DNA of 63,227 nt, counting the filler, from Collodictyon triciliatum (lineage: Eukaryota), in NCBI GenBank assembly GCA_043381765.1. It is 4 parts of 4 records of this genome, joined end to end, with 100 filler letters (N's around TTAATTAATTAA, not from the genome) between each part and the next. Parts side by side here need not be neighbours in the genome. Positions count along the whole stretch, not along the records: positions 19,690 to 39,266 come from JBHJMP010001289.1; 3 more parts are not named here. One strand, given 5' to 3'. Positions within the stretch are counted from its first letter, which is position 1; every line of letters starts with the position of its first letter. A program made the translations under genes and the position numbers. Under the pieces are notes generated by a model. That model had not been told where the DNA came from. It did no database searches and worked only from the letters and a program-made list of their open reading frames with translations. This document shows positions 12,821 to 39,266 of the stretch, piece by piece.

Positions 12821-15800
12821 TCATCCAAGATAAGGGTCAGGTATGTTCCTGTTCCTCAGCTCCAATACTTTTGCCCTGATTGCAGGGCCCCTCTTAAATG
12901 CGGGGATGATAAAAGCTACGGTTGACACGCTTGAAAGCCAGATACAGTTAACCAAAATCAAGAGAACTGGTATCCATGTCTGTGAGCTCAAGAAACTGGA
13001 CAGTAGGGCAAGGAAGAACGATAAAAATATCACATATAGACTCGATAGCTCCATGGTGTTTTCAAACTTTGAATTGTACGGACAATACTGCCTCTGTAGC
13101 CATATGGAGCCCTTTGGAAATGTAATGGACATGAGCCTTAGACATCCTAAAAACAAACCATGATAATTTTTTTCTAGCCAATACCTGAATCACCATCACG
13201 AGAAGCATAAAATATGCAGAACGCTGAGTGTATGGAATAACACTGGTGATGAAGGAGAATGCAACACGACGCGCGATAATGACGAATTCCCAATTTATGA
13301 GGCTCTGTATGGCATTGAATAATGACTTTTACGTTTACAAGTTCTGGATGGTATGCAAGTTAAAGAAATATTACTTCTTTATAGGGTAAAAATAGAAATC
13401 CATAGCGCGCCTTCGGGTCGTATCCAGGTTGAAGCACGGCATTTTTGACCTTGAACCATAACAGCACAGGAAGACCTATGATAAAAACTACACAGGCAGG
13501 TATCGATAGAGCTAGCACTTGCAGATATTCTGGCGATGCTGGGCTGCATTCAATCCACGGTGCGTAGTTAAGATACAATTTCCCCTCGCCGTTGTCATTA
13601 ACAGTGCAGCCGAATGTGCCAAATACCTCCCTTGCGATGGAGTAGTATACGAAGAAAAGCAGGTTCAGGGTGATGAATACAACCTAGTAAAGTTGCAATT
13701 TTACAATTGTTTAAAAGTCAAAAATATGAGATTTATCAATAAAGCATAAATTTATCTTCGTCTTCTTTAAATTGGATAAAAGAAAAGCATATGCACCTTG
13801 TTTTGCATTTGTTTAGGTCCAAGAAAGAACCCAGCTAGACCCGATAATACAAAAATAGGTATTCTAGAATAACTGAATATGATTGAATTCACAAGATTCG
13901 TTGATCCCAAAACACATGAAAGATTGGGAAGCTGAACTGAACCGAGGGAAAAGGATATATGGATAAAGTTATTTGTATCCTCAGATTTCACAAAACCAGA
14001 CGATATGATCGAAAGAGTTTGCATATGAAACAAGATAATACGGACGCTGGCTACAGTATATTTAAGTTTCGATTAAGATATGAAAATCTTATTATTCATG
14101 CACAAACGAACAGCACTGTGAAACTAGTATTTCTATATAAAAAAATAGGATAAAGGGAAAGGGAAAGGGAAAGGGAAATGGAAAGGGAAAGGGAAAGGGA
14201 AAGGGAAAGAATAACCTGAGGAGGACGATTCGGAAAAATACAAGTACGTAATGAGCAACAAAAAAAGCGCACTCCCAAACACAATCGTTGTGATTACAAT
14301 CATATCATCACATTTGAAGCATGAAATCCCTTGGCTCCCATACCCGTCTTGACATTTCGAGCATAAGTGACCTTCATACCCATCCTGACATACCTGAGTC
14401 ATTTGAGGAATATCGCGGGAATGGCCAGATTCTTTTGGAATGATTGAATTGCATGAATCAGGTCGAGGGCAAGGGACAATGCTGGCAAGTTGGGTTATAT
14501 TTGGAGATGCATAGCATTTCTTTAAAGTTATTCCATCAAGGCAATCACATTCTCTTGGACATTGTATGCAGTTATCCCCAAAGCCAAAGTAATTCGGGAG
14601 GCATTTACATAATGTATAGTTATAGTAAGTTGGATCCATATCCACAGTCATAGTTATCAGTCCAGATTTTGAGATGATTGCTGGGCAGATGTAAAGTTTT
14701 TTGCTATCTTCCAAGTTATATGGATCAGCATATTGCATGAAAGAGGGTATTAATCCAGATGTCTGATGATTCAAGTTGGTATTCTTAAGACCTAAATACT
14801 CGAGTTTATTGAACCTAAAGTATGATTCTGGTATAGTTCCTTGTACAGGATTTCCGGAAATATCAAGCTTTATCCACTTTGATAAATCTACCAGATCACT
14901 AATCGTAGTTATTCTGTTATTTCTTAGACTTAACGACTTCAGATTGGGCAAATAATCAAAAAGCCTTCTATTGATGGTTCCATAAAGATGATTATCATCC
15001 AAGAGCAGAGTCTCGTAGGTGTAGTTATAGTTGTTATCTACCCGAGATGGCATTATGAAGGTTGTAGCATCTAGCACGAATGAGTTGTTTCTTAAGTCTA
15101 TTGTCACTAGGGATGCGAGATTCCAGAAAAATATTGGAACAGTTCCATAAAAACTATTATGAGCCACAGAAAAGGACCTTATCTGATAGAATTTTTCAAT
15201 TGACGTTGATAGCGAACTGCCGAAACGATTACTTGACAGGTCAAGATATTGTATTGAAGGTATAGACCAAGGTGAAGGTAGGGAGCCAACTAAAAGATTT
15301 TCACTCAAATCCAATTGCCTTAACTTGGGCAATTTCATGTCTGTTAATGACGAGTTTAGCTGATTTCTGAAAAGATTTATTTCATCAAGTATTCTGCAAT
15401 TTTCAAATGTTGGAATGCTTCCATGCAATCGATTGTCGAACGCTAGAAATTTTTTTAAATTGACAAAATCCAAAAATCCTGGTATTGTACCTAGCAACGC
15501 AATGAACTTTGTAAGAATGTACAGTTGGGCACGTATTTTTGGAAATGATTTTAGCATACCATCTAGCCGGTTTTTTGAAACATTAATTATTGAAAGTGAA
15601 CTCATATCCTTGAAATAAGGTATGCCTCCTGGTCATTTACATTATTAATGTCATATGAATTATCGAAAAGGCTTAAAGAAATAAAATTGAATACCTCGCA
15701 ATTGATTTCCGGATAGATTTAAAGTCGATAAAATTGGTAGATTTTGAAAGATTGGTATTGTTCCTTTTGTGAAAATAATAGTTGTAATGTAATGCACAAG

Positions 15801-18061
15801 TCGTGAGCTTCATCTGATTATTTACAATTAAATCAAATTCTAAATATGCATTTTCTATACCATTGAGTCGGTTTCCCGAGAGTAATAACGAAGTCACAAG
15901 AGGAATTGAAGAAAAAAGTGGAATGACTCCTGCAGTATCGAATTATTTTGTTAACTTTCATTTCGCTTTGTGTAAGATAGGAGCATAATGGAATTAGCTG
16001 AATTTTATCAACTTTTTGTCAACATTTCTTCCGTTCTGTAAAAAATTACCCTCAAGCTGATTATCCGAGAGAGAAACTGTCTTAACTTTTTTTATTTCTC
16101 TAAAATTTGGAATATAACCTGAAATAAATTATAAGTTTATCATTACAAAAGGTTCGAAAATGATTATGGAGTGAAATCCTCTTTTAATCAATTAAATTGA
16201 ACCCGTAAGTTTATTGGCCGATAGATTTAGTGTTGTGATAGACGGTAAACCAGAAAAATTAGGAATATTCCCTTGAAAAAAAAAGTATGTTTTAGCATGT
16301 AAGTCAGCCATAGGACACATAAAGATTATTCTGAAAACCTTGTAACAAGTTGCTTTGTAATCGTAAATCCGAAATCAAAGGCATTTTTTGAAAATCGGGA
16401 ATAGAGCCTAATGAGGTGAGATTGCATGCATATGTTTTATTTTATTGGAAATAAAAATTATGAGTCGATTGATAAATTAAGGACCTTCTATTTTATTGTC
16501 AGATACTTGAAGGTATATAATGCATGGTAGGCTGTCTAGATCTGGAAGAGGCCCTATGATGTATGTATCAATATTGGATTTGGATTTGATTATAAGATTT
16601 ATAATATTTTTACGCAACATATTGGCGTATCCATACCACCCAAAACATTTGCACTGAAACGAAGAAGGACAACTCCCGGAATTTTATTAAAATTTGGCAA
16701 ATGTCCTACATCAAAGATCGTAAGTGGTTTGTGTATTCACTGCTTTACAAAATTGATACAAGGGAACTATAAGAATGTAGTTGAGCCAAGATAATATACC
16801 TTGTATTTTTGTCGAATAAATACCCAGAGAGGTAATATAAGGCATAAATTGAAAATTTGGTAGCGTTCCTATGAATAATTCCTTGCTTTATTATGGATGA
16901 CCATATGTCTGATTGAAATTCATAATTTATGTATGAACCTGTCAACTTTTCTGATGCTCCAATCCACAATTCAGTAATATAATTCAAACCAGAGAAATTT
17001 GGTATTGTTCCTTCAATCATATTCCCATCCAATTCGAGTTTCTCTATTACAGGCAAGCCAGAAAAATCGGGTAAACTTCCAGTTATTTGGTTTGTATAAA
17101 GATTGAGTTTTTTGGCCAGTGGAAGATAGAAATCAGGCATGTCTCCATACAATGTCCCAAAGGAAAAGACAACCGTGTCAAGAAAATGAAACTGTTCCAA
17201 TACTGACGCCATTTCTTGGATGTCACCGTGTAGATTATTCTCACTCAAAGAAAGTCCGGTAACCGAGCATCCATTCTCCTGGAATATTTGGTTAATTCAG
17301 TTATCATGATTATGAAGTCATGCACACTATATTGATGTACTATAAATCATAAAAGATCACATTCCTTTAGACGCAGTGAGACAAAATTAATGGCTGTTCA
17401 TTACCTTAATTTCTTCTCCTGTGCATTTACTACTGCATATCACCCCGTGCCATTGACAAATAGGTATTGATTGATTTTTCCAGCCGCTTTTTTTGAACCA
17501 TTCATCACCGTTCGCAAAATCATAAAAATCTACCAATAGAGAGTATTCACTGTAACCACTGAAAACATCAGGCATCGCTCCTGGGGTATCACAAACCCGG
17601 CTTTTATCGAGCATTGCAAGGTTTTTAATACCATATGAATGATCGGTCTCATCTTTTTTAGAAGAATCAGACATTTTCAAAGTCAACTCTATTTTGCTGT
17701 ATTTCATTCCGATATCACTCCAAGTTTTACTCAGCTCGTTTCGATTTTCTTGATAAAAATTCTCATCCACAGCACACATCGATTCTTGTATTTCATGAAG
17801 AATTTTTAATGCTTCATTTCGGTTCAGAGAGTAAAGCTCATCTTTAGTAAAATAGCACAAATCGCTGGCCTCGAATCTATGCAAAAGTTTTTTTTCCTTT
17901 ATTCGATTCAAAGTAATCTATGCAAAAGTTCAAAAAATGAAAATGAAAAAGAGCGATATCATAATTTTTTATTAACAAGCAAACCTGGAAAATGATAGGG
18001 AACAAGACACCAAAAGAATCAATACAGAAAGCATCGATACGAAACTCCTTGATGGAATCAT
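12821..18061 (-). CDS. Receptor-like membrane protein: signal peptide, LRR N-cap, many LRRs, Cys-rich repeats, multi-pass (about 7) TM domain
   Basis: Signal MIPSRSFVSMLSVLILLVSCSLSFS; cap LVDFYDFANGDEWFKKSGW...ICQWHGVIC; repeats of type LxxNxLxGxIPxF; Cys-rich CKCLPNYFG..CIQCPRECDC and CQDGYEGHLCSKCQDGY. Hydrophobic helices include RYGFLFLPYK and CPYNSKFENTMELSSL. Stop at 12821. Confidence 0.85.
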
Positions 18062-19480
18062 TCTAACAATATTAGAAATGGTTTTTTGATTTATATGAAT
18101 TAAGTTATTAGATTGATCCATATTATTTTGCTCACAGAATCACATAATTAAGGGAATTTAACTATTAAAATTTTCACTTTGATATACTGTTAAAGTAGAA
18201 TAAATTCTTAATCTATTGAAAACCCAACCGATTCAGACTCAAATATCTATGCACTTGGAAATAGAGCAAAGACGAACGCTAATAATTTACATATTTTTTT
18301 TAATTTTTTTCGAGTATTTGGCTTTAAGTTTCTTTCTTCAAAATTTTCTTTTACGTACTATTATAATATCCCAAGTTCCAAATTCAACTTTGCTATCATA
18401 ATATTCAAAAGACTGAATGTTTCGACTATTTAATTTCACACAGCTACATCTTGAGTTTGACCGTTTTGAATCATCTGATTTCTAAGGAAAATATTAGAAT
18501 TTCTATTTTAAAAGGGAGGATTACAAACTTCTTGCTTTGTATAAATATATAAATTCTACAAACCAGTAAAAAGTCACCATCAGGATAAAAAGAAGCTTCG
18601 TTTCTGTGGAATCGTAATTTTAATATTTTTGTTATTCTTATTTATGAATTTAAATTATCATTTTAATACGGTATTCCTCCATTGATGTGAGAGATATTGC
18701 GATTATTAATGGCGGGTCCTCCTGAGATGTCTAACTCAAATATTTTAACACTTGAATTGAGGGTTATGAGCAATATGATTATACTATTGAAAATAGGGAG
18801 AACATGGTGCTGCTTCAACTAGCCGAGTTTATTCATAAAATCACCTGGCTTGTTATGTGGCCTGCAACAGCGCAGAAATGAGATAATAAAATTTAATTTC
18901 AAATGAAAGGCTATAAAATCAAAAACTACTCTCATAGGATTTTTTGTTAAAGAAAAGTGGTGCAAAGAATGTTCTTCCTGTTTCGTACTAACTGAATAGC
19001 GTGTTTAGGATTGAAACTGATATTAAATACAATCGGAGAGCGTTGAATTTCATTTTCAAACAAATATTACCTTAGAATTTGATGATTATTATGACGCATA
19101 CTGCGCTTCCAAAAAATCTAGGTAAAGTAAATGAAAATTCGTGCAAGCAGGTTGTTTGGTATCGACTAATTCTAGGTGTAATATTCACAAACTCACTTGG
19201 AAGGGTTTTGACACAAAAACGTTTCGTGTTTTTGATACACCCTTATAAAAAGCTAGTTAAATAGTATGTGGGTGTAAGTCAGTTGAAATTTTTCTGTAAT
19301 TTTTTGTGTTATCATTTTTCATATCTCAATATTTCATGGATTAAGTCAATTTTCAGTGCGACTCTAACATATATTCTTAACTAATTTTCTGTGGGTATTT
19401 TAATGAATATTTTTGGTTTATTTTTTGGACGTTTTTGTATATTTATGTGAATTGTATTTTTATTTATTTTGTACGTTTTT

Positions 19481-19589
19481 GTATGTATGTATGTATGTAT
19501 GTATGTATGTATGTATGTATGTATGTATGTATGTATGTATGTATGTATGTATGTATGTATGTATGTATGTATGTATGTATGTATGTATG
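19481..19589. repeat. (GTAT)n microsatellite at the scaffold end
   Basis: Seen directly. Confidence 0.95.
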
Positions 19590-19689
19590 NNNNNNNNNNN
19601 NNNNNNNNNNNNNNNNNNNNNNNNNNNNNNNNNTTAATTAATTAANNNNNNNNNNNNNNNNNNNNNNNNNNNNNNNNNNNNNNNNNNNN
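19590..19689. other. Artificial scaffold spacer N44-TTAATTAATTAA-N44
   Basis: Exactly 100 nt with a six-frame stop linker at 19634-19645. Confidence 0.97.
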
Positions 19690-19690
19690 T

Positions 19691-19780
<90 letters not shown>
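19690..19780. repeat. (TTTC)n microsatellite upstream of HIS3
   Basis: Seen directly. Confidence 0.95.
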
Positions 19781-19783
<3 letters not shown>

Positions 19784-19908
19784 TTCTTCTGTCTCCCGTG
19801 TCTACAAATACGCAAAGTTTCCCTCGAGGGCGCACACTGGTTTCCATGGAGGAACTCATTTGCAAGAAATATGCATGCAGGACACCAAAATAACAACCTT
19901 CTACTAAA

Positions 19909-21241
19909 ATGGCTGAGGAAGTACCTGCCCGAGTGGCAACCATCGCCCGCAGGACAAAGGAGACCGACATCAATCTGACTCTGAACATCGACGGCACAGG
20001 AGTGGCCAACGTGAACACGGGAATTGGTGGGTTTCTGCCTGTGTTTGAAACTGTGGCCTCTGCGCTAGATAACCAAAAAAAAGAAGGAAAATATCATTAG
20101 ATTATATGTCATTATTCTTCCCCCTCATCAACAACAATTCATCTGTTTCTATGCTGGTTCTCCACACGCGCGCTTTTTGCGATAGTATATTCTTAACCCC
20201 ACTGTTATCGCAGGCTTTTACGACCACATGCTCACGGCCCTGGCCAAACACAGCAGAATGGACATCACACTCACATGCGTCGTATGCCTCCTTTTCTTTG
20301 TATCCTCATATACTCGTCTCCTTTTTTGTGTTTGTTTGTATGTTTGTTTGGTTTTCTGTTTGGTTTTCTGTTTGTTTGCTTACTAATGTTCAACTTCCTC
20401 TGCACTTCTCAAGGGTGACCTCCACGTCTGTGACCACCATACAGCCGAAGATTGCGCCATCGCCCTTGGAAACGCATTCGACACTGCATTGAGGGATAAG
20501 AAAGGAATTAATCGATTTGGATATGCGTATGCCCCTCTTGGTTTGTGCAACGCCCCTATTTTACACTGAGTTTAATATTATTTTAGTTATTCTCTTTATC
20601 CATATCGCGATTATTTTATCACATACCTGTGGCATTGCGCATAGTAACCTGGAAACTTTGAAAGCACTCTGTCTGCAGCTGTGTGTCACATGTAGTATAA
20701 TCAAGCATCTCCACAAACCTCTCACACGGCCATGAATTTCCTCAGACGAAGCGCTTTCCCGGGCCGTCATTGACATCTCCGGCAGACCGCACGCATCCAT
20801 AGACCTTGGCCTCAAGCGAGAAAAGATTGGCGAGCTGTCGTGCGAAATGATACCACACATCTTTGAGAGCTTCGCTGCCGCTGCCCGACTGACCCTTCAT
20901 GTGGATTGTCTGAAGGTTTGCGTTCTCTGCTTGTAATCTATCTCATCTTCGCTGTTTCCATTTATCCATACGAAATTATTCAGTAAATCCCGATAGTAAT
21001 TCTATCGTTACGATGAGTTTGTTGCCGAGCAGTTAATCGTGCCCTGGAATTCTCACCAAGAGAGACATATGTATATTTTCAAAACATGTCTGTTTTGTTC
21101 TCAACTTGTTGTGACTCGATGCAGGGCTTCAACGACCACCACCGATCCGAATCAGCCTTCAAGGCTTTAGCCATCGCCATCCGCCAAGCCGTGAAGACAG
21201 ACGGCTCCAGTGATATTCCAAGCACCAAAGGAGTCTTATAG
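19909..21241 (+). CDS. HIS3: Imidazoleglycerol-phosphate dehydratase (5 exons)
   Basis: [84 protein letters not shown] and the terminal PSTKGVL* (TAG 21239-21241). Confidence 0.97.
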
Positions 21242-21303
21242 TTCGCCAACAGACCCGTCACACACCCCAGCGGAGAGACACATAAGGGACACAGACAAGA
21301 ACA

Positions 21304-23767
21304 ATGATTATCCCGACCATCTATCTGCAAAACGGAAAGCTAGTAGAGGCCAAGGTGACGGCTGGAGGCCTAGAAGTAGAGAAGGTTTGGGTTGGTCACA
21401 TGACATAATGGGATATTATCATTTATATTTTCTTTTCTTTTCTTTTCTTTTCTTTTCTTTTCTTTTCTTTTCTTTTCTTTTCTTTTCTTTTCTTTTCTTT
21501 TCTTTTCTTTTCTTTTCTTTTCTTGTGCATCGGCCTCGTATGTGGCAGGAAAATAATATTCTCGACACTATACAGTTCCTTGAGAGTGACCTGGAGGACG
21601 TTTATCGCCAGTTCCGATACGCGGTGCAGATATGCGTGTATGACCTTGACACTAATTTCTCTGCAACAAGGTGAGATATGACCATAGCTCCCAATATCGA
21701 ATTTAACTCTAACTCATTGTAGCAAAATTTCTCCTTGCTCGAACTTGCGATAGGAAGAAGAAATTAGAAATTACTCCCATTGTATAAATCATACTGAATC
21801 TTCGTGTAGTGAAACCCAAAAAGTCGTGAAGAGATTCATCCGCGAAGGCTCGACCCGTGTTGCCTTACCAAATTCAACAGTATACAATCTACCATGATAT
21901 TAATAATAACATCAAATAATTGATGTGACCAGCGATTCAAAATCTGGTGCGGTTTAAATATGCTAAACATTGTTGTTTTACGCAGGACATCGAGGCTATG
22001 TATCAGCTCCTCGACACGGGGGCACTTGCTGTCCAAGTCCCCTTGCAAAGTCTAGAACTTGCAGCCGAGCTCCCAAAAGACCGGTTCCTGGTCGAAGTAT
22101 TTGCCCCCGATGTCTCGTGTGTCTCCCTTGAGTGGGCACATGCACGCCTTGGGCTGCCAGAAACTGTTTCGTCTACACTCAAGTCGAGCTCTGGGCTGGT
22201 GATTCACACTCAATCTGCAACTTCTTCTAGGTTGATTACGATTCAGCCATTTTGTTTCTACCATTTGCCATCATTTTCTGTCATACAGAGCGGCACTGTC
22301 ACTTTAGCAAAATAATCATTATACAATGAATGCCCTAAATGTTTTAACTTAACTTACTCGCTGAAATCCCAGCATCGAATGGATTCAGGCGCTCCAGTCA
22401 ACATTGAAGCAAGAGTACGAATTCGGTGGCCGTAGAGTGGTTGTGTCTGCTGACATGCAAGCTTTAGATGATGTCGCACAAATCCAGTCTTGTGACACTG
22501 ATATTCAACTGAGTGCAGCGCTTCTTGCTGTGGGCGAGACTGTTCCGCGAATTCTTCTGGCCGATGCTCTGACCTGTTCCCTGACCACCGATCGGTTTGT
22601 GTCTTTTGGCTTCAATCATCTTACTATCATTTTTTTTCCCTCCCCTTTGTTTTTCACAGTGTGATACATCCGAACAGTTCGCGTCGACCTGCATTTCTAA
22701 TCTGATAATGTGCACTTTACTCTTTTCGTTTGTTTGCATTTCGGCACCAAATAGACCTGATGGATTATTCACCACCCTCGTCGTCGACCAGCAAGGCGTT
22801 GCACTCGGCGTCGTATACTCATCGCGCGAGAGTATCCGCAAGTCTGTCGAAGTTGGGCGTGGAGTTTATCAGGTTCGAAGCCTAAGTTATTGGGAAAATC
22901 GCGAAGCATTAAGGCAAGCGAAATGACAGCCGAACCAATTTTTAATCGACCTGAACTGAGTTATAAATTCATTACAATACTCTTTTTCAGTCGAGGAAAA
23001 GAGGGCTTTGGTTCAAAGGAGAGACATCCGGCGCTGTTCAGCATCTAGTCCATATAGACCACGACTGCGATGCCGACTGCTTGAGATTTGTTGTGAAGCA
23101 AGTTGGAGTTGGATTCTGCCACTTAAATCGCCGCACATGTTTTGGTGAGAAAACCGAGTGTGAAAGAGATTTAAAGTATGAACCACCCTTGTGGCCGCCG
23201 TGCACTCGGGAATTGTGAAGCATGCAGACTATTCTATCATCCTTTCTCTTATCCTGTGGATTTCAACATAGGAGGTGACGACGGAATACCTGGACTGGTC
23301 CGGACGCTGCTGGAACGCCGAGTCAATGCACCTGCTGGCTCCTACACAAAGCGTCTTTTTGACGATGCCAAGTTGCTCAAGGTAGTCAACTTGTTACATC
23401 AGCAGCAATAAGAAAAAATAAGTTTAGAATGAAACCCTAAACGGCAAAACCATCACATCGGTGTGATTGTATTTTGCGGGCTGAACTCCACGCAAAACTC
23501 ATGTTGTATTGCCCACAGGCGAAGCTTCACGAAGAGGCAGACGAACTGCTGGAAGCGGTGGAGCCGGACCACGTGGCGGCAGAAGCGGCCGATGTCATCT
23601 ACTTTGCCATGGTCGCGGCTGCGCGGTCGGGTGTGGAGTTGGCTGACATCGAGCGGCACTTGGACAGACGCTCACTGCGGGTTCGTCGGCGTGCGGGGAA
23701 TGCAAAGCCTGCATATCTCGCGCCTCCAACCCCGGCAGAGCAGCAGTCCCAGCCTCCACCGTCATAA
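21304..23767 (+). CDS. hisIE: Histidine biosynthesis protein: degenerate HisA-like N-terminus + PR-AMP cyclohydrolase (HisI) + PR-ATP pyrophosphatase (HisE); no HisD domain
   Basis: Exon 1 (21304-21354) reads MIIPTIYLQNGKLVEAK. Later exons read DRPDGLFTTLVVDQQGVALGVVYSS, YQSRKRGLWFKGETSG, DHDCDADCLRF, GFCHLNRRTCFG, APAGSYTKRLFDD, AKLHEEADEL, EAADVIYFAMV and LDRRSLRVRRRAGNAKP. TAA at 23765-23767. Confidence 0.92.
21427..21523. repeat. (TTTTC)n microsatellite in intron 1 of the hisIE gene
   Basis: Seen directly. Confidence 0.95.
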
Positions 23768-23962
23768 AAGAAAAGAAGAAGAATCAAGGCATGGACATAC
23801 CTCGTAGCTGGCCATCTCCGCGTGTGAATATGTCCCAGTGAAGGCCCCCGACCTCGAGCAACTGTGGAACGCCTTTCTGTAGTCTCTTTTCAGCATCCAA
23901 CATTTATTAGTGGCGTTTGGTTTTATTTCCACGAATGTAGGGTGCGATTTTAAACACAGCCG

Positions 23963-26070
23963 TCATTTTCGGGGTTGCTTGGTAACAGGGCTGCTCTTTT
24001 CAGCGTTTGAACCAGAGTATATCTGGCTATTCGGCCTCTTGTCTCTTGTATGCATTCCTTTACATCAAGAAAACATTTCTCAGAAAAAAAATAACTGAAC
24101 ATGGGCGCACGATGCCTCCCACAAAAGCTGCACTCACGCTCGATGGCGGACTCTAGTTCCCTGACTCGTCCCTCCAAAGCCCTGACTTGTTCGGCTGATT
24201 CTTGCTTTGCATGGAGCGTCGTTGAGATTGGGCGGGATGTGTCTGGGGCATAATGGGGCCAGCAGAAGCAAAATAAAATAGACTGCATCGCACTGTGTTT
24301 TCCTTGAAGAGAACTTACTTTAACTGATTGAAGCTTTTTTCTATACAACTCGCTCGTCGAAGAGCCTTCGTTCTTTTGGGTTTCAATCCTCATCAATGCC
24401 TCGTCATACTTTGTGTCCAAAAGAAAAGGCGCACCATCAGGAACATGCATCCGCGATTGTTCCAAGCCTTTGCAGCCTGGAAAATAGGTGCCAGATACAC
24501 CCCGGCTTGATGTAACATGTTACTGACCTTGAGCTTCAGCTTGAGCAATTGCTGCTCTTTCATCGCTGCCTCATGGCTATGTTGCGACTTAAGCATCGAT
24601 ATTTCTTTCGTCAGCTCCTGATTTTGCTTATCCAAACGATTGATGTTGTTCTCAACTACAATTTCGGGAGGCAGGGCGGCTAGTCAGTTCCGGTAGTGGA
24701 ACCTCAAAAAAAACATACTTCTTGCTGATTATCAACACTTTTTGTTTCAACGGAAGTACGGGACCGCATAACTCAATTTCGAATGGGTGATTCTAAGATA
24801 AAAAGGTTACGTTCGTTTTTTAAGGAGCACGTTTTTGTGATGTGTGAATCAAGTGACGCTTTCAATCTCAAACATTCAGACTCTGTCTCGACGAGTTTCT
24901 GCGGACGATAGAGATGACTGTCAGGGTGATGGTGTGATGTTGTGTTTCGTTCAGAGTGGTTTCACGTGTTACATTTTTGATTAACTTGGCCTCCTTAAAA
25001 ATTTCCAGATTATCATAGTCGGTTTTCACGCTGGACTCTATAGAACTCTATAAGATATATATATAATGAAAAACTGGTTGCCAATCCACACCTCACTAAA
25101 ATTATCACGATTTATGTAGAATTTAATCCAGTAGATGCCTGTTTTATTGGTGCTTTTACAGCGAGTTTTTCCCTTAGCAACCATAACCAAGAATTGGTCT
25201 TTCCATGGTTTGATAGAAAATGAAGGGGAGCGGACAAAATGAATATTCATGCAGGACATTCAAACCTGAATAATTTCCAGACTTTGGCGCCGCTCTTGCT
25301 GCAGTCCCTCTAGTGTCTTCATTGAGACATTCATATGAGCCCACCATTCATAATCGGATAGTCTTTCTTATCTCACAGACTTGTACTGTACATTACCTTT
25401 GTCATTTCGCACCACTTCGCCGCCATCTGCGCTTGGATTGTCTGGGCAATGCTCAACTTTTCCTTCACATCTGCTAATTCTGAAAGAAAAGAAAATTATA
25501 TTTCAAATATTGCAGATTATTTTGAAGCATGAACTTTTGATGTCTGTGAACCTTTTTTGAGCTTCTGGATAATGGCATCTTTATCAGCCTCTGAGATTGT
25601 GAGCTTTTCGATGACACTTTTGCATTCCTCTAGCTCTCTCAAATCCTTTGAAAGTTTGTATTTTAGTAAAGTATACACTTGACCGATACATCCTCGTTTG
25701 CCATGGCATTCATTTGGCGTTTTCTTTCGTGGAACCTTGTCGATTTCGTCCAGGCATTCAAGGACAGACTCCATCAGATTTTGCGGCGCTCCAACCTGTG
25801 TTGGCCAGCAAGCGAGGGAAATAAATAGAAGGAAAAAAAAAAATAAAGGAATAATTAGAGGCTCTCTCGGCATCGTCATATCATTTTGTGCAAGTGGGCG
25901 CCTCTGCGTGCAAATCTATCTTTTATCATCCGATGTTTGGTTTTGTGTTGTTCGGAACAGTGCGCGCTTGCCTGTGTCCTCTGCAGACTTGTCCCCTTCT
26001 TTTCTCCAACACGGTTTTAAAGTATCGTTCCGCGATTGGACTTGCCAAAACAGAATCCCGCGTCCCAACA
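23963..26070 (-). CDS. Multi-exon coiled-coil protein of unknown function; start codon not resolved
   Basis: Exons with heptad/charged character: DLRELEECKSVIEKLTISEADKDAIIQKLKK, LDKQNQELTKEISMLKSQHSHEAAMKEQQLLKLKLK, QESAEQVRALEGRVRELESAIE. Both ends are approximate. Confidence 0.55.
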
Positions 26071-26474
26071 ACGACTTTTCCGTCTTCAGCGAAGAATAGT
26101 CAAGCCGGTTAGGCTTGGAATGAAGGTATCTGTATATCGTTTTGTATTATATTATATTGATTCGCCATTTACATATTATTATGACATAGTGGCTTTTTAA
26201 TAATCCTAAAAGGTATTATCAATATATATCCCACAAATATTATTCAAATTAAGAAGTAGATTGCAATCAATCAGTATCATATGTGCCAAACGGGGACGGG
26301 AGATCCACAAACAAGCAGCAGACGAATCAAATCACCTGATCGCTCGACAAACACCCGCAGAATCCGCTGCTCCTTCTTCGACAACCGGCCCCGTCAGAAA
26401 ACGAGTTCATCGTCATAAACACGGGTTCGCTCTCGAGTTACTGGGATTCTGAGACACATCTGCTTTCTTTGTAG

Positions 26475-27824
26475 AGCTGGCTCGCGTTCAACCTGGCAAG
26501 TCCTCGGCCGTTCTCGCGGATGGGCCGTTGGAGGACATAAACGAGTACGATTCGCAGATCCACCTTCTCAGGCGAAAGACTGAAGATGCAATCAAGGCGG
26601 TCGCAGGCTACTCGGGTGCCCAGCGGAAAGACGTAAGGATTTATATTTGATTAGCAGGCAGCCCGTTTCTGTGGTGGCTCGATCTGGTGGCGAATGATCT
26701 ATACTGGCCTTGACTGTGGAATCCTCGTATTTCCACCCTTTTCTGTAATAGAAACTTTCAGAAATCTCGACGCTGATCGAGCAGTGCAACTTGCAATACC
26801 GGAGCTTTAAGTTGGAGTTGAATGAGTTGCCTCGTGACGAGCGACGGATTTACGAAGCGGTTCGTATTATGTACACTTCGAGATTTTGAAGCTCTAACCT
26901 TTTGCTTGTGCTTCGGCTAGACTGTAATTATTTTCTCATCTATATTCGTAATGAAATATTTTGTGAAAAATCTGACACTTCTGCCGCTTTCCGAGAAGAA
27001 ATTGAAGGAGCATCGCGAGAGAATCGATGAGTTGGCCAATGAGCTGAAATGGGCACAGGCAACATCACAAGACGGACGCAGTATGTTAGACCACTCACTC
27101 TTTTCTTATTCATATTTTTAATTTTAGTATTAGTATCAGTATTAGTATCAATATTACTATCAGTATCAGTTTTAGTATTACTATTTTAGTATTAGAACTT
27201 CCCAGATACCTACACCCAATAATCAGTACCTTACATAAGCTCAAAATGAATTTAATTCCAATCGTCTCATCAATAAAGACAATACTGCATGCAATTTCAT
27301 TTCTTCTGTCTCAAAAAAATCGCAGCTCAGGATGTGGAGCTGATGACAAGCAAGGAAAAACTGAATGCCGCATCTTCCATTCAAGACCAATCCATTTTGT
27401 CACTCGACCGAAGCAAAAAACTGATTAACAGTGCCACTGAAATCGGTGTCAATACCGCAGCCAGTCTCAAAGAGCAAACGGAGAGGCTCAATCTAATTAA
27501 CCAGGACATAGATTTAGTACGAACTCATTTTTCTTAAATGCGCACATATTCAAGTTTGAAACACCGATTTGTTCCTTCCACTTCCACACGCTTCTATAGA
27601 TGCTGATTGGTAATGATATCTTTCATCTGCCTCTGGATGCAATTTAACAGGTCGAAAGCAACCTCCATCAAGCCGAGAAGCAAATGCGAGCGTTTGCTCG
27701 TCGCGTTATGACAGACAAGATTGTACTCTGTCTGTTATGCTTCATCTTCATTGGTGTCATTTTCATCATCGCGTACTCTATCGCTAATCCTGATGCAGAC
27801 ACAAACATGCCGGATTCCATTTGA
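26475..27824 (+). CDS. Qb-SNARE, NPSN (novel plant SNARE)/Vti1-like; first exon and ATG uncertain
   Basis: Habc-like exons (YRSFKLELNELPRDERRIYEAKLKEHRERIDEL), SNARE motif SLDRSKKLINSATEIGVNTAASLKEQTERL, RAFARRVMTDK, C-terminal TM helix IVLCLLCFIFIGVIFIIAYSI, TGA at 27822-27824. Confidence 0.85.
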
Positions 27825-28257
27825 CCGAAAGCAAAAATGATTTTCCCAACCCGTACAAGAATATCTCGCCTCTACGACACTTTGGAGATAAAAATTCAAA
27901 GTCTGTCTTCCCCAACCTTGCCTGTCACAAAAACGCGGACCAGGGTTATTCCAGCTTACCCTACTTGCTGCTTTCTCCAGGAAAAACATATCTCAGTCCA
28001 ATAAAAACCTTTAGCAAAACCCCCTCTGATCCGTTTCCCATGACGCGCGCACAAAAGGACGTGAAAGGGTTGAGAAACCAGCAGCCTGAATGAAAACGCC
28101 CGAAGATACAACAGCGACCAGACACTGCACCCTTTTCAAAATTGGAATTTGCGGCGGTCGACACATTTTCATTCCGTTGGATGTTCGGGCGATATATACT
28201 TATTTACCACAATTCATTGAATATGGTTTGAATTTGCGAAACAGTAAAAAAAACACC

Positions 28258-28512
28258 AAAACACATACATAAAACACAGACATAAAACACAGACATAAAA
28301 CACATACATAAAACACAGACATAAAACACATACATAAAACACATACATAAAACACATACATAAAACACAGACATAAAAAAACACCGAAACACAGACATAA
28401 TACATACACACAAAACACGCACAAAACACATACATAAGACACAGACATAAAAAAACACAGACATAAGACACAGACATAATACATACACACAAAACACGCA
28501 CAAAACACACAT
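28258..28512. repeat. 13-bp minisatellite AAAACACA(T/G)ACAT with variant units
   Basis: About 20 units; the first nine are regular and the later ones degenerate. Confidence 0.9.
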
Positions 28513-28887
28513 GAGAATGAGATAAACCCGAACTGCTGTGACAGAAAACAAGCACCGATCCAATAGCCGTCTATATTTGCAGCCTCCTTCCCGACCAGTC
28601 GGATCGTCAACTGCAACAAACAAGCATCTAAAGGTAAGTACTCCACAACCCTCTCAAACATTTTGCTCCAAGAGTGTGAAGAAACTTCCAGCGAGGCCAT
28701 ACGACTTCTCTGTCTCTCCAACCAAATGTTAGTTTGTAAAAAGCACAACACCTGTGCTTTTTGACCCAGCACTCAACCAATCGATTAGACCTCACCATAG
28801 CCTTCAAAGGAACCGAGAAAAAAGAAGAAGAGCCACAAACTCTTTAAAGGAAAGCAAGAGCGATAAGCGAAACGTATTCCAAAACCC

Positions 28888-31800
28888 ATGGAGCGCCTCT
28901 CGAAAGACACCCTGGACTGTCTCGAGTGGATCGAAGCCTGCATCCACGCCGTGCTGAAGCCAAAGGCAGACAAAGTGCGCAAGATGTACACCGAAGAGGA
29001 TTCACGGTTGCTTTTTCAAGTTCCCTGACTTTCGCTACCATCTTTTACCCGGCCGAGCCTTATTTTATTCTTGTTCCTAGAATTCAAAACATATGACTTT
29101 TCTCACGAAGGATATTATGATTAACTCCTATTCCATCCACGCTTTCTTTTCCTATTTGTCCGTTCTCGCCACCGCCTGACTCAGTCGTTCCATCACTGAC
29201 TTTCTGGAGAATTCTGATACTCGAATGGTGTTGATTTTTTACGTAAACAAAGATGAGCTTTGCGCCACTCAAACTGTGCCAACTTCTTTCAAGAGGAAAA
29301 GCATGTACCTTATCAAGAACAGTCGCACCCCAGTCAACCGATCCAATATCGAGAACGTTTGCCATGATTCTAATCTTTCAATTTTTTTTGTTCACTTATA
29401 AATGACTTCTTGTTGTGATTTGTCTTAAATTATCACACTATCTATGTTATCCCTTATAACGTCCTTCCCAAAGACGCTCATATTCTTGGATAACCTATTT
29501 GGATGTTAAACGTCCTCGTGCCTACTCTGACCGAACACATTCCACTCAAACTCACCACGAATTTACCATAGGAGGTCAGGGTTGGTGACTTCTCGACAAA
29601 ACCAATTGAGACACTGTCATTGACCCTGCAAGAAGTTTATCTGCCTCTCCTATCAAATCCAGCTAATCAGGTATGTTTTAGTTATAGAATTTCTTTGTTT
29701 ATAAACAGTAATGTCTCGCGATTTCATATCAATAGTGTAAGTGCAATGGTGCACACATACATATTTTTACACAAATATTCATACCACAAACCATCCTCAA
29801 AGCAACGCTGGCCTGAGGTTGTTGGCAAAGAAGTCGTTGACAACCTACAGAAATTCATCGCCGATATTTGCGTCACCATTGGACAGACTAAAGTAATGCC
29901 AGTAGTATAATTCTGCGTGACTTACAAAGAACAAGAAATGTCTCCAGATGGACGGGCACATGACAGTCTCATGCTTATACTAGAGCAGAATAGCTGCACT
30001 TGGTATTGATCTCTTTATTTGACCTGGAAATCATTTCATTGTAGGGAAAAACTCTTCTGCCGCTCCCACCATCGGAAGTCTCTGGAGACAAAGCCACGCG
30101 TGACAAGGACCGTGTGCATTTGTTGGAGGGTGCAATTGTTACCTGGACGAAGCAAATTCGAGTGAGTCCCGTCTATAGGGATCAACATGGGCTTGTTTAG
30201 AATAGAGCGTGTAAAATTATAGCATAATGGATTAGCTGTTCATCTCCAATTTTCACTTTTATTTTGGGCGGCTCTATAGAACGTTCTGAAGATGGACCCT
30301 GAGGCTGTCCTTAAGGGAGGGGGGAACCCAGGACCCTTAACAGAAGTTGACTTTTGGGCCGCGAAGGTTAACCACTTATCTACAGCATTAATAATGGAAT
30401 TCTCTGTGATAATACTCAAATATACCTGTCCACGTAGACTTTTTCTCTCTTTGTTTGCTTTCTCTTACGAACTGATATTGAGCTCCTAACTGATGTTTTT
30501 TTTCTTTTCATACTGACATGCCACGCTATTTGAAATGATTAGTCTGCCAACCTCAATTCAATCCAAGAACAATTAGCGAGCGAAAAAGTCAAAAAGATTC
30601 TCAGAGTTCTTGACCTGACAAAAAGCACATACTATGCCCCTTTTGGAAGACTCTGCAAGGTTTTAAATTCATTTTTTGTCTGATATGAAGAGAGACCGAT
30701 TGTACTTGGTCAAATCAATATGCATACCTTGCGCTCTTTTATCGTACCTAAATTCCCCTCTCTCAACAGGAAGTAGGCAAGGCACAAGAGGAAGCCAATA
30801 GCAACTCCACCCACCTGGAACCTTTACGAAAGTGGTTCATGAGATTGAACGAAGCCACAAACTTCACGTCAATTACAGAGACATATCAGCCTATTCTCCA
30901 CATTATCTTGTTGATTTGGAAGCATAGCAAGTAAAATAAAAATCAATCTATTTAAAATTTCATGGATTAATCCCTTTTTTTTATTTTTTACAAAAGCAAG
31001 AGACAAACTGCTAATATTTCACGTCAACGCTACTTGTGCGATTTTTTTTTTATCATTAATTCAAAGTCATCTACCCTTGTCATACGAAACAGATACTACA
31101 ACACACCTGGTCGCCTTTTTGTTCTAATCGTCGAAATATGCAATCTCATTATTGACAAAGTAATTACATTCATATATCGCCAGTCAAAAAGGACTTAAAT
31201 CACTCCATTTCAAATATGCATGAATGTTTGCTAAATGAATATATGAATCAGGCGATGCATTTCATCAACGACAAAGAGCTATTCAAGCTCGACCCTCAGG
31301 ACGCTGTTGACCGCCTTAAAATTGCTCTTCGGGTGTGCGGGCAATTCAAGGTATTTTGTCACAACATTTTTTTTTATACATTTCCTACTTCTTCCGTTGA
31401 TTTCTTAGCAATATTTAACTCGAATTATTCTACTAGAGCACCTACTTCGACTATAAAACAATTGCAAATAATGAGTGTCCTCAAAATCCATGGCGCTTCC
31501 AAAACAATGCCATTTTCAACAGACTTGATGGGTTTTTGGAGCGTTGTCACGATGTTTTGGATTTGATGCAAACCACCGTTCAGTTCTCAAAGCTTGAACG
31601 TATTGAAATCGGCGGATCTAAGGTTTACAAATTTTGCATTTCGTAATATTTCCCGATTTATGTTTTTATTATTAAACCAAAAAAAATAATACAAAAGCAA
31701 AAACAACAGCAAGATTTATCCATAAATAGTAATTATATATCATCTAAATCATTCCCAACACATTTTTGAAACAATATCTGCATAAACTTACTATCATATG

Positions 31801-34800
31801 TCATTGTCGATGGGGTTCTATCTGAAAATAACCATGATAGGGTAAGAGCCTTACCAACAATTCACGTCAGATTCACACGGACTTTCAACAGGCTGTTCAA
31901 ATATTTCAAGTTTGTAATACACTTTTGCCGTAATTTGTTTCATATTCGTCTTGCATACCTGGACATATTTCAACTAGTCTTGATACCGGACCAATACAAT
32001 TTCTCACTCTTAGAACATACCGTATGACATAATGAATGTCGAAGAAAAGAAATTTGATGATGACTTTTACGAATACCGAACCCGTATCAAAGAGTTGGAG
32101 AAGAGACTAAGGTTTTTATGAACTGTTTATATTGAATGACTCAAATATCTATAAAATTGCTATGTATTGATTAACAATTTTTCTTTTTGTACAACGCAGT
32201 AATATTATCAGCCAAGGGTTTGATGACTGCACTACGCTGCATAGCGCGTTCGGGCTCATCGAAAGTTTTGAAAACATCTCTGGAAGAGAGGGAATCCAGG
32301 CTGACCTGGAAAGAAAATATAGCGACCTATTGAAGCTTTATATTCAAGATATCAGAGTATGTTATTTGGTTATGGTTTTGTATTATTTACATTGTGCCTT
32401 CTCATTCACCCATGTTTCTCTTTTTTTCATTCGCACTGCATACCGCCATTCTAAATTGTACAATAGGGAGTACACGAACTGTTTCAGTCACGAAAAGATG
32501 CACCCAATATTTCACCAAATTGGCCACCAACTGCAGGTTCAATTAATTGGGTCAGAGGTTTAATTGAAAGATGTGAGGGTCCGATGGCTAAATTCAAAGA
32601 GGTGTGTTGCATTTTTTCTGTACTAATACACGCTAAGTCGAAATATCGTATTTCATCAATGACGCCATTGCTTATGTCACATAATTCAACCGAAGCTTGA
32701 CCGCGGTCTCTTTGAAAATGAGGATGGGAAAGAAGCAATTCGCATGCTGCAGGTGCTTTACCCAATAATATCTACATAAATAGTAAAATCCAATAAATTC
32801 GAACGATAAAACCCTTGAATAAATCCTAACAATGAGCGTAGTCTGCAGTACTGGAGTTCAAAGAATACGAAACGCAGCTTTTCGAAACTTGGGTGTCTGA
32901 AGTGGAAACAACATCGCAAGTATGAATTTACAAATACTACCTTATAACATATTGATCGACTGTTACATTCATTCATTTCTTGAAAAAAAAAAACTATTCA
33001 TACCTCTTTCTTGTCTGGAATGACTTTTTTTTTTATATTCGTTTGTTCTGGTATAGCATATGTTCGCAGGAGTTTGCACCAGAACTTAATTCCGTTTAAC
33101 CTACATCAAGACCAAATTAAAACAATCCTTGCTGCGAAGAGAACCAGCCAATCGCTTCCTGGTGGTCAATATCGACCCTGACCTTCTTCGTCTGCTGCGC
33201 GAAGTAAAATACCTTGCCCAGCTCGGGTTTTCCATACCGGAAGGCGCGATGAGTATATTCAAAAAGGTCATTGAACTTTTCTTTTATATTTATATGCACT
33301 TAACGACACGATGTCTATTTTTCCATCAGCCGGCTCGCCAATCATGTCTTGTTTAGAACCTTTATGTAATAGCTCTTGATACTTTTGACGCTTTTGGTTT
33401 ATTCTCACTTTAGTGCTTCTCAATATATACGACAAACTTTTACAGGCCGAAATTTTCCGCACCACGTCTGGTAATCTGGACCTGATTGTCAATCGCTATA
33501 ACAATATTCTCAGCTCGTTGATGGATATCGAGCGCCCGTTATTCCAACAAAAAATCGACGAAATCGATAGTTCATTGGAAAAGGTAAAGCATTTCACTCT
33601 TGGGGATTGCATAACTCCCATTCTGGTTCCTGTTCTTTTTTTCCTCCTTTCCCCTCTCTTGCGCTCCAGTAACTTTTTTTCTTAGAAAATACTGGCCAAC
33701 TATTTTTTTTTTTACCTCCAGGGACTGCAGCATTTGAATTGGAAGAGCCACGGTATTCAGGAGTTTATTACAACGGGAATGTCTAAAGTTTGTTTAACAC
33801 AATGAAGAAATAAAAATTTTATTTATTTATTTATTGAAAATGAATACTTTTGTATTGTTGAATTTATTTGATAGATGGATCCACGGTAACTGACAAATCC
33901 TTACATTTACAGGTGAAAGAGGCAGCTTCTATCCTTGCTTCATTCAAGGCCAATTTCAAAAACATTGAAAAAATTCTGCTGGGTTGGACTAATAGTCTTT
34001 TATTCGAGAGAAAGCAAGGCAAGACATATACACCAGAAGATTTCATGGAGACCGTCTATAAGGTATTCTGAAGATGAATTCATTTTGCATAAATTCAAGA
34101 CCACTGATTATATTTTATTTTTCTGTTTATTTGTATGTGTTGCTTTTTTTCCCTCTGAATATTTGCAAGGTCCTTCTGGTAACCCGAAAATGCGAGTTTG
34201 AAGAGGGTGGCAAAACTATTCATTCACTGTTACTTGAAAGGTATCATTCGGAATGTTCATTAGATCTGCCATTTACTTAACGAACCATCTTGTCTATGAT
34301 TCTATACTATTCATTACACCAAAGACATTTCTTTTTAACTACCAACAATCCATTTTCATACAAATCTGTCCCTAAATCATATGTTTTTCCTCGAGTTTCC
34401 CAATCACTTAGCTAGATAGCATTACAAAAATGCATAAAAATGATGTAGATCATTCCTCTTACATTCGACTTTTCTCATCAGCAATAAGATTCTCAAGATA
34501 AGCAAAGGTGCTCAATCGTGGAGAAACTATCTGGAGTGGGTGAACTCCATTATCATATCACATTTCCAAAGGACGATACTCAACAGCTTGTTGTATCTGA
34601 AGGAGCAAATTGTTGTATGGTTATTTTCATTATTCTTCACTCTCATCCATCATTCATAAGGACTCTTTTCATCACGATTTTCTGTATACTCACTTTGCGT
34701 CCTATCCACACATTTCAATGCCACAATTGCCTGGTTTAGGCGGTAACCGTCAACGAAAAGCAAACAGACCAAGGCCCGCTTTTGGAGGTGAAGGCAGAGC

Positions 34801-37800: not shown

Positions 37801-39249
37801 AATAATAAAATAAAAATAAGAAGCATTCCATCACTTCCCATCCCAATATTATTTTCAATTGATTTTTAGGACTAGCAAAGAAACATATACCTGACCATTC
37901 TCTGTGATATCCTTAAACCAGGTCATGCGTGCAACTGGAGTTCATTTTAACATATCCGCAAATGTGAGCCTTGGAGAACTTTTGGCTCTTCGCCTACATA
38001 ACTACGTAGACGAGATTCTTGGTATTGTGGACAGAGCAAACAAGGAACAAGTGAGAGAACCGCCTTTTTATTCAAATCATATAACCTTCTAGTCCATGCG
38101 TCTAAAAAAAACTAAAGTCCCGTAAACTTCATACATTCTAAACCGGTATCGTCAAAATTATTAATCTTAATTCTGGTATAGCTGATGGAGAAAAACCTCC
38201 AATCAATCGAGGACACCTGGGAAAGCATCGAAGTTTCATACACTGCATACAAAGGAACATATCTCCTTGTAGTCCCTCAAGCACTTTTGCTGACTCTTGA
38301 GGAGAATTTGGTACGCTTGGGCAATTCTAGCTGTTTCGTTTTCTTATCCAATATCCGCCTGCATCATGAATCAATATCATCCAAGGTGCTAATTTTTTTT
38401 TTTTTTTGGTAGGTGACACTCCAAAACATCCGAGCAAACAAATATGTCGCCCATTTCCAGGATGAAGTGAACAAGTGGCAAAAAAAATTGGCCACAGTGG
38501 AATCGGTTCTGAGTATCTGGCGTGACGTTCAAAACCAGTGGTCAGGATTGGAGTCACTGTACCAGGTATTTTTGTCTCTAGAATAATATCGATGAACCTT
38601 TGTATTCTGATTTAATGTCAAAATATATATGTCAACCTACTGGGCTGCCTTGCTTGTGTAGGAATCTGAAGACGTGAAGACACAACTGCCAGAAGATTGG
38701 AAACGATTTAGTCTTGTGTGTAATCTCTTACTGAACTATGGAACATATATAACGAATTATGCAAATACGTTGAATTACAATTATGATATTTTAATATGAT
38801 TTTTTTTTTAAAAAAAAAGGATAGATGGAATGATACTCCAATGACGATAAATAATTCACATTCTTATAGGCCGATTTGGATTGGAGGGAGTTAATGCGTG
38901 AAGCACACGGTACTTTCAATACCATTGAAACATGCACAAAGGAAGGAAGACTTGAATTATTGGAGCGTCTTAGTGCCTCCTTCGAGAAGTGCCAGCTTGC
39001 CCTGACAGGTTTGTATATATTTATACATCCTTGTTATTCTACCAACGGCCAAACTATGGAAATATCTGTGAATTGTCCGTCTAATGTTCGTTCCCTACTT
39101 CTTTTTTTTTTTTTTTTTTGTCTTCCTTTCTTTCTCCATTCTTCAAAATCCTAGAGTACCTGAAGTCCAAACGCTCAAACTTTCCTCGCTTCTACTTTGT
39201 ATCGGATGCTGATGTGATTGACATGATGAGCAAAGGGTCTATTCCAAAG
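28888..39249 (+). CDS. Axonemal outer-arm dynein heavy chain (beta/DNAH9-11-17-like), N-terminal tail through linker; truncated by the scaffold end
   Basis: Dozens of GT-AG exons: [140 protein letters not shown]. Confidence 0.95.
35651..35761. repeat. (TTTG)n microsatellite in a dynein intron
   Basis: Seen directly. Confidence 0.95.
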
Positions 39250-39266
39250 GTGACAAAGGGTCAAAA

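Follow-up and report, generated by a model that had tools for sequence, protein, structure and literature searches.

We analyzed a stretch of 63,227 nucleotides (here referred to as the window) from the genome of Collodictyon triciliatum (GenBank assembly GCA_043381765.1), and found that on one of its scaffolds (positions 19690-39266, record JBHJMP010001289.1) two histidine-pathway genes, HIS3 and hisIE, lie on the same strand with only 62 nt between them. They are direct neighbours, non-homologous and members of one pathway, which is the adjacency by which metabolic gene clusters are recognized. Moreover, spliced HIS3 RNA reads on past the HIS3 stop codon, crosses the spacer and enters hisIE exon 1. 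This makes the two transcription units overlap physically, and co-transcription or overlap of the two genes is supported at the contig level. Our preferred account, to which we give a probability of about 45%, is a his cluster of two genes whose transcription units overlap; hisIE would be translated from an mRNA of its own with the spacer as its leader. In histidine synthesis the HIS3 product, imidazoleglycerol-phosphate dehydratase (IGPD), catalyzes step 6, and PRA-PH and PRA-CH, the activities of hisIE, catalyze steps 2 and 3. By our own estimate, an uncomputed one, the chance of finding another histidine-pathway gene directly after HIS3 is below 1 in 1000.

The HIS3 gene encodes a protein of 199 aa in five exons, separated by four introns, on the + strand. 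These exons and the spacer that follows them are given below, where X1 to X4 denote four public sequencing runs.

19909..20026, + strand, HIS3 exon 1: ATG at 19909; spliced model, with the joint 20026/20214 in an RNA contig
20214..20281, + strand, HIS3 exon 2: spliced model, PF00475 match and joints in RNA contigs
20414..20540, + strand, HIS3 exon 3: PF00475 match, E 1.8e-15; RNA joints in X1 and X2
20746..20915, + strand, HIS3 exon 4: PF00475 match, E 1.1e-14; RNA joints in X1, X2 and X4
21125..21241, + strand, HIS3 exon 5: ends in ...PSTKGVL with the stop TAG at 21239-21241; model, Pfam and RNA contigs
21242..21303, + strand, spacer between the two open reading frames (ORFs): 62 nt, crossed unspliced by record 1 of X1 and record 5 of X2

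The Pfam family PF00475 is matched by 4 of the 5 exons, with exons 2-5 spanning profile positions 5-144 of 144, and exons 3 and 4 each pass its gathering score alone. The two D-x-H-H-x-x-E metal-binding motifs of IGPD are both present: exon 3 carries CDHHTAED, and exon 5 carries NDHHRSES. The second gene, hisIE, occupies 21304-23767 on the + strand and encodes 447 aa in nine exons with eight introns; its product consists of an N-terminal domain (N-domain), PRA-CH and PRA-PH, in that order.

21304..21384, + strand, hisIE exon 1: starts MIIPTIYL; N-terminus aligned to homologs; joint from 21384 to 21576 in record 3 of X1
21576..21670, + strand, hisIE exon 2: acceptor set by an RNA contig
21810..21879, + strand, predicted hisIE exon 3: borders from frame and homology only
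21986..22230, + strand, predicted hisIE exon 4, N-domain: model and homolog alignment
22373..22594, + strand, predicted hisIE exon 5, N-domain: model and homolog alignment
22755..22872, + strand, predicted hisIE exon 6, start of the PRA-CH region, containing ...DRPDGLFTTLVVDQ...: model and homolog alignment
22991..23144, + strand, hisIE exon 7, PRA-CH: PF01502 at 22991-23143, E 2.2e-18
23272..23381, + strand, hisIE exon 8, start of PRA-PH: model, Pfam and homolog alignment
23519..23767, + strand, hisIE exon 9, PRA-PH: PF01503 at 23519-23764, E 2.4e-11; stop TAA at 23765-23767

Introns 2-8 of hisIE are predicted only. The acceptor at 21549, which the initial model had given to exon 2, was replaced because an RNA contig joins 21384 to 21576. 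Half of hisIE intron 1 is occupied by a (CTTTT)n microsatellite at 21426-21525.

Both ORFs end where their families end. To compare the C-terminus of HIS3, we took the 120 best homologs, of which 91 are of at least 185 aa and 90 could be aligned to the last residues of HIS3; in 88 of these 90 the protein ends 0-2 residues past the HIS3 C-terminus. At the other side of the spacer, the N-terminal peptide of hisIE is MIIPTIYLQNGK, and 19 of the 120 best hisIE homologs reach its residues 1-3, all 19 of them beginning there with their own residue 1. Specifically, MIIPTIYL aligns with MIIPSIDL in bacterial proteins of the order N-domain, HisI and HisE (N-I-E proteins), and with MIVPCITI or MIIPYLTA in ichthyosporean HIS4. 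Since both ORF ends are conserved family termini, the stop and start codons delimit two complete, separate proteins, and the 62 nt are a true inter-ORF spacer. The first-pass annotation had placed the TAG at 21239-21241 and the hisIE ATG at 21304-21306 on the same strand, had noted that the two frames differ, and had pointed out a TAA in the hisIE frame (21283-21285, 21 nt before the ATG); all of this was confirmed on the sequence.

The composition of the spacer is A 39%, C 34%, G 21% and T 6%. It has only 4 T in 62 nt, and the first-pass annotation had noted the lack of an AT-rich tract. With its A+C content of 73% it is similar to the HIS3 leader (19881-19908), which has 79%, and unlike the introns, which have 25-57% T; the spacer is probably the 5' leader of hisIE. 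The lack of AATAAA in the spacer is likewise correct (no AWTAAA of any kind was found there), and yet it is weak as an argument. In fact, the + strand carries no AWTAAA across the whole of 19469-24271, including the 183 nt past the hisIE stop. Since the hexamer is missing even after hisIE, its absence from the spacer is no proof that HIS3 is without a 3' end of its own.

We then turned to RNA. A search of public runs gave 17 rows with part of the stretch, 15 of them recorded as RNA, from 12 studies; the sources are one coded organism (X1, with a share of 0.32) and freshwater or lake metatranscriptomes. The contigs of X1-X4, all of them Logan contigs, were aligned to 19800-21415 at 90% likeness. 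Such contigs show joins, and not starts, ends or abundance; rare isoforms are dropped from them and a single transcript cannot be demonstrated with them. All four HIS3 introns were found as GT..AG joints at exactly the modelled borders (four in X1, two in X2 and one in X4). Record 1 of X1, a contig of 1337 nt, is spliced through HIS3 and then continues unspliced over 21123-21314, that is, over the stop codon, the spacer and 11 nt of hisIE. In record 5 of X2 (525 nt), which comes from a separate study, HIS3 introns 3 and 4 have been removed, and the contig then continues unspliced over 21123-21381 and so takes in nearly all of hisIE exon 1. Record 3 of X1 covers 21305-21384 and goes on with letters matching 21576-21605 with one mismatch, which gives hisIE intron 1. 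The HIS3 and hisIE contigs of X1 overlap by 10 nt only (21305-21314) and were left unjoined by the assembler; a break of this kind at the hisIE start would fit two RNA populations that meet there. The k-mer depths of the two contigs are 7.0 (HIS3) and 5.5 (hisIE), and depth is a poor measure here. As a side observation, a contig of X3 (record 8) is 90-95% alike over 21199-21234, the last HIS3 codons, and diverges completely after 21234, where 30 of its 115 loose letters were visible, too few for an interpretation; it is from a related organism with a different HIS3 3' end.

It is conceivable that the two units have no real overlap, and that the bridging contigs are assembly products in which k-mers of residual genomic DNA or unprocessed RNA link two abutting mRNAs. 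All contigs are from Logan, the RNA status of X1 is a guess, depths are low (about 5-7) and the X1 contigs are incompletely joined, which would suit such an origin. However, the bridging contigs are themselves spliced at HIS3 introns, and the identical unspliced path through the spacer was recovered in two independent studies. Moreover, neither the HIS3 introns nor 19800-19879 are covered by any contig in the four runs, which we count only as absence of cover; with spliced contigs and no cover of introns or of 19800-19879, carry-over of genomic DNA is not evident. We therefore regard an assembly artefact as improbable.

The same two contigs bear on another proposal of the first-pass annotation, in which an optional intron of 62 nt would remove the HIS3 stop and produce a fusion enzyme consisting of IGPD, the linker TRT and HisIE.

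21233..21294, + strand, candidate GT-AG intron, rejected: no joint; length and composition unlike those of local introns

The GT at 21233 and the AG at 21293-21294 do exist, and they would allow an in-frame join of ...STKG to TRT-MIIP; this much of the proposal stands, while use of the segment as an intron is not supported. The suggested check for a 21232/21295 junction turned out negative, with a joint in 0 of the 2 crossing contigs, both of which retain the candidate. It has 62 nt and 13% T, against 106-209 nt and 25-57% T in the 12 introns modelled in HIS3 and hisIE, 5 of which have RNA support. Furthermore, the hisIE ATG and the HIS3 end are conserved family termini, as described above, and fused relatives were not seen: IGPD occurs on 0 of the 120 best hisIE homologs, and PRA-CH or PRA-PH on 0 of the 120 best IGPD homologs. 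Given the missing joint, the short and T-poor candidate and the lack of fused homologs, we rejected the fusion as the major product; a minor spliced form is compatible with the contigs, and we consider the fusion enzyme as a whole very improbable.

At the other end of the locus, the RNA contigs extend HIS3 beyond its scaffold. Two further features belong here.

19879..19880, + strand, splice acceptor AG of the HIS3 leader intron: contigs of X1, X2 and X3; donor exon off the scaffold
19881..19908, + strand, HIS3 leader segment, A/C-rich (A 50%, C 29%), with an in-frame TAA at 19891-19893

Contigs of X1, X2 and X3 begin to fit at 19880, right after CAG, and carry an identical loose end of 30 nt before it, which continues upstream for 635 further letters in X1, 115 in X2 and 321 in X3. 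This loose end, and two parts of it, gave 0 matches in the window, and the scaffold starts only 190 nt upstream of the acceptor at 19880. A loose end that is common to three runs at 19880 and absent from the window means that HIS3 mRNA has a leader intron, with its first exon or exons off the scaffold, and that the locus extends beyond this scaffold. Because of the in-frame TAA at 19891-19893, the HIS3 ORF cannot extend upstream; among the reading frames of the leader, one closes with the TAA at 19905-19907, a single nucleotide ahead of the HIS3 ATG. The upstream RNA of at least 635 nt could be a long leader or could hold another ORF. The start of the scaffold is a (CTTT)n microsatellite (19690-19790), which lies within the HIS3 leader intron.

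The arrangement that we prefer would work as follows. Each gene would yield a protein of its own, HIS3 and hisIE both using the start and stop codons conserved in their families. The hisIE protein would come mainly from its own shorter mRNA, with a start site within the spacer, the last exon of HIS3 or its last intron, and the A/C-rich, T-poor spacer would serve that mRNA as 5' leader and not as an intron. HIS3 mRNA would end within exon 1 or intron 1 of hisIE, RNA that spans both ORFs would be a co-product, and the adjacency would probably serve shared regulation of the pathway. The tight intergenic space elsewhere on the scaffold, where 183 nt lie between the hisIE stop and a convergent ORF, was counted in favour of this arrangement.

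Several points weigh against it. No transcript start or end was observed, and Logan contigs cannot show them. The X2 contig across the entire spacer is equally expected from a true bicistronic mRNA, and the similar depths in X1 are what one RNA would give. No promoter element was found for hisIE. Finally, the spliced upstream RNA of at least 635 nt may hint that multi-ORF RNAs are normal in this organism. A single TGACTC, a Gcn4-type core, is present at 21112-21117 in HIS3 intron 4, 192 nt before the hisIE ATG; we discarded it as a promoter hint, with the hexamer occurring at chance in the window (28 against 25 expected) and TGASTCA 7 times against 8.9 expected.

The principal competing explanation is an obligate or predominant bicistronic, possibly tricistronic, mRNA that is capped and polyadenylated and on which hisIE is reached by reinitiation, shunting or internal entry. 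A bicistronic mRNA with reinitiation or leaky scanning had been suggested in the first-pass annotation. At the RNA level the suggestion is partly supported, with spliced contigs of two studies bridging the stop, the spacer and hisIE exon 1, while those two routes of translation fit poorly. In its favour are also the like depths of the X1 contigs, the shortness of the spacer (62 nt are too short for a separate terminator plus promoter), the common pathway of both genes, a geometry like that of green-algal bicistrons as far as these are described in the available text of PMC7896298 and PMC11291117, and the position of the HIS3 AUG itself behind at least 660 nt of RNA. On the other side, the X1 assembly breaks at the hisIE start, and a contig over two genes proves no single transcript.

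Translation is where a bicistronic mRNA meets most of its difficulties. Spliced RNA contains eight AUGs before the hisIE AUG, namely the HIS3 AUG, three in frame with it and four out of frame. The HIS3 AUG stands in the context ACTAAAATGG; A at -3 together with G at +4 makes it strong by the generic rule, and the organism's own consensus may differ. AUGs before hisIE are not depleted: the four out-of-frame ones compare with 4.9 +/- 1.8 expected from 5000 codon-order shuffles, and 43% of the shuffles have as few or fewer. We regard leaky scanning to hisIE as unlikely. It is accompanied in green algae by a weak first-ORF context and AUG depletion, according to the available text of PMC11291117; here AUG depletion is absent, and the context would not count as weak by the generic rule. 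The fold of 21225-21330 does not differ significantly from that of shuffles (z -0.59), and no structure like an internal ribosome entry site was found in it. Reinitiation after an ORF as long as 199 codons is generally inefficient. With eight undepleted AUGs, an upstream ORF of 199 codons and no significant structure in the spacer, translation of hisIE from a bicistronic mRNA looks inefficient, and we hold an obligate or predominant bicistron to be possible but somewhat unlikely. A bolder version, in which HIS3, hisIE and possibly a third upstream ORF are cistrons of one spliced and polyadenylated mRNA, a eukaryotic 'his operon' translated by a mechanism other than leaky scanning, appears doubtful to us.

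We compared the overlapping pair with known systems. First, close co-directional genes are transcribed together in the spliced-leader operons of nematodes, kinetoplastids and euglenids. Unlike these, the 2 crossing contigs have no loose end within 21242-21303, with the reservation that contigs drop minor forms. A spliced leader would also be shorter than the loose end in front of HIS3, which extends over as much as 635 nt. In the window, scans with Rfam and for tRNAs gave 0 matches each, and thus no spliced-leader RNA by way of Rfam.

Second, histidine genes are the textbook bacterial operon. We scanned metagenomes with HIS3 exon 4 and obtained 80 environmental IGPD loci, whose best segments are 35-75% identical and none of which is a close relative. 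In 6 of the 80 (L042, L072, L074, L075, L076 and L079) hisIE is present as a single intronless match at operon-like spacing, and 30 of the 36 loci whose downstream sequence reaches 2.5 kb or more lack it. In L042:8200-11440, a bacterial contig of high GC, IGPD is 62% identical, and a gene for N-domain, HisI and HisE follows 1.46 kb downstream on the same strand. These six loci resemble the window in having IGPD and hisIE on one strand in one transcription unit. In contrast, they are intronless and have other his genes in between, whereas in the window the two genes, with 4 introns in HIS3 and 8 in hisIE, stand directly side by side. Linkage or fusion of the pair in related protists, proposed earlier as a check, was seen in none of the available non-bacterial relatives, none of them close.

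Third, in nuclear bicistronic loci of green algae the medians for upstream ORFs are 600 and 444 nt, and those for the inter-ORF distance are 260 and 212 nt, with many distances below 100 nt, according to the available text of PMC7896298. In the accessible part of PMC11291117, weak contexts of the first ORF and AUG depletion are described, and mutational tests support leaky scanning. As far as these sources go, the likeness to HIS3-hisIE lies in two unrelated ORFs on one strand in different frames, a short gap, an upstream ORF of about 600 nt, and RNA over both. The differences are that the HIS3 AUG, judged by the generic rule, is in no weak context and that AUG depletion ahead of hisIE is lacking, that both products act in the same pathway, and that IGPD has its affinity with chytrid and other fungal proteins, not with green-algal ones. 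Moreover, a locus of this type is defined by one transcript with one cap and one poly(A) site, while the HIS3-hisIE RNA is known from contigs, which bridge the spacer and cannot show ends or single molecules.

Fourth, Gordon et al. 2015 (PMC4503453) demonstrated polycistronic read-through transcripts in Agaricomycetes with long reads of single molecules. In the portion of the discussion available, a role in balancing pathway enzymes is considered possible and the mode of translation is left open (PMC4503453). Here, too, adjacent co-directional genes are joined on spliced RNA; in the window the evidence is from short-read contigs only, the lineage is a different one and the introns are long. 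A search of the literature on polycistronic transcripts and on eukaryotic histidine biosynthesis gave no eukaryotic his gene pair among the titles and abstract starts listed, its scope leaving aside the supplementary lists of PMC7896298 and PMC11291117. A Cryptosporidium preprint also turned up, by its listing, among the literature on polycistronic transcripts.

Finally, HIS4 and HIS7 are eukaryotic his fusions, and fungal HIS4 has an N-domain of unknown function, according to the available text of Fani et al. 2007 (PMC1963479). With fungal and holozoan HIS4, and with the split hisIE of fission yeast (PMC1963479), the window protein shares the order N-domain, PRA-CH and PRA-PH and an N-terminus of the type MIIPxI. 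Its best hits are trifunctional HIS4 proteins (N-domain, HisI, HisE and HisD) of fungi and ichthyosporeans; unlike these, it has no HisD and stops at 23765-23767. Its N-domain is divergent, with one exon that has no credible homolog in two protein libraries. In budding yeast HIS3 is unlinked to HIS4, whereas hisIE of the window adjoins HIS3.

We further examined the hisIE protein and its relatives. Exon 7 has up to 78% identity to HIS4-type proteins, and over its aligned parts the protein as a whole shares about 37-58% of its residues with N-I-E proteins of fungi, holozoans and bacteria. The first approximately 240 residues have no Pfam match, and residues 1-240 align with the N-terminal domain of homologs. 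In bacterial N-I-E proteins, which align with hisIE from residue 1, this part carries the HisA/HisF barrel family PF00977 (precomputed Pfam). The hisIE N-domain (exons 1-5, 21304-22594) retains the MIIPxI start and a DLD motif, and it may be a degenerate HisA-like barrel. Exon 4 of this domain was also used as a probe: a word-based search of longer proteins gave 0 matches; a metagenome scan gave 594 pattern matches, of which 0 were confirmed; and HMMER against 1.84 billion representatives gave 1 match, to a protein of 1222 aa in 7 stretches, which we took as spurious. Histidinol dehydrogenase (PF00815) was not found after hisIE among the 99 ORFs scanned in 23598-39151, and the next long ORF is on the opposite strand. 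As hisIE is without HisD, a separate hisD gene must be elsewhere.

The HIS3 protein is closest to IGPD of chytrids and other early-diverging fungi, with a best full-length identity of 72%, to a chytrid protein, among the 120 best homologs. For hisIE we built a FastTree tree with 52 rows from 120 hits, namely the window protein, every third trifunctional protein and the complete set of 19 N-I-E proteins with lengths of 400-480 aa; other shorter hits were dropped. In this tree the branch of hisIE is long, and its neighbours are an ichthyosporean sequence and the bacterial N-I-E clade. The protein is placed in neither the fungal nor the bacterial clade, the tree being a weak test for recent transfer of a piece of a bacterial operon.

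To our knowledge, his genes of the eukaryotes studied so far are either fused, as in HIS4 and HIS7, or unlinked. Intron-rich, nuclear and arranged head to tail, HIS3 and hisIE offer a clear natural example in which to ask how enzymes of one pathway are co-expressed in eukaryotes without being fused. If a single mRNA is true, it would be a same-pathway polycistron beyond the leaky-scanning rules of green algae, and a polycistron would place the phenomenon in a protist lineage without previously described polycistrony. If there are two overlapping mRNAs, as we prefer, the pair is compact but ordinary and forms a small metabolic cluster. The novelty is modest, for closely spaced co-transcribed gene pairs and small metabolic clusters are already known in eukaryotes.

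As to the surroundings, the window is a chain of scaffolds joined by linkers of the form N44-TTAATTAATTAA-N44 (six-frame stop spacers) at 19590-19689, 39267-39366 and 58938-59037. Because the linkers join separate scaffolds, genes that flank a linker are not shown as neighbours. The GC content is 0.34 to the left and 0.41 to the right of the first linker. NOP16 (49457-50035, - strand), around which the first-pass annotation had taken spacers for comparison, is on a different scaffold from HIS3 and hisIE. The convergent long ORF downstream of hisIE lies on the - strand at 23953-24519, and its end is the one 183 nt from the hisIE stop. Two copies of AATAAA on the - strand at 23903-23927 stand just beyond this end (23953). 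From the 183-nt gap and these copies it follows that the 3' untranslated regions around 23768-23952 are short or overlapping.

On the same scaffold, many dynein heavy chain exons with DHC_N1 and DHC_N2 matches extend over about 29500-39266 (+ strand) and reach the scaffold end; their presence points to a flagellate. The preceding scaffold closes with a (TGTA)n microsatellite at 19478-19589. On another scaffold, 14136-17917 (- strand) encodes a large leucine-rich-repeat protein, which has a plant-type LRRNT_2 cap as well as a part rich in cysteine. An ORF at 39683-40213 (+ strand) contains the zinc-binding domain of reverse transcriptases (zf-RVT) and is probably the remnant of a retroelement.

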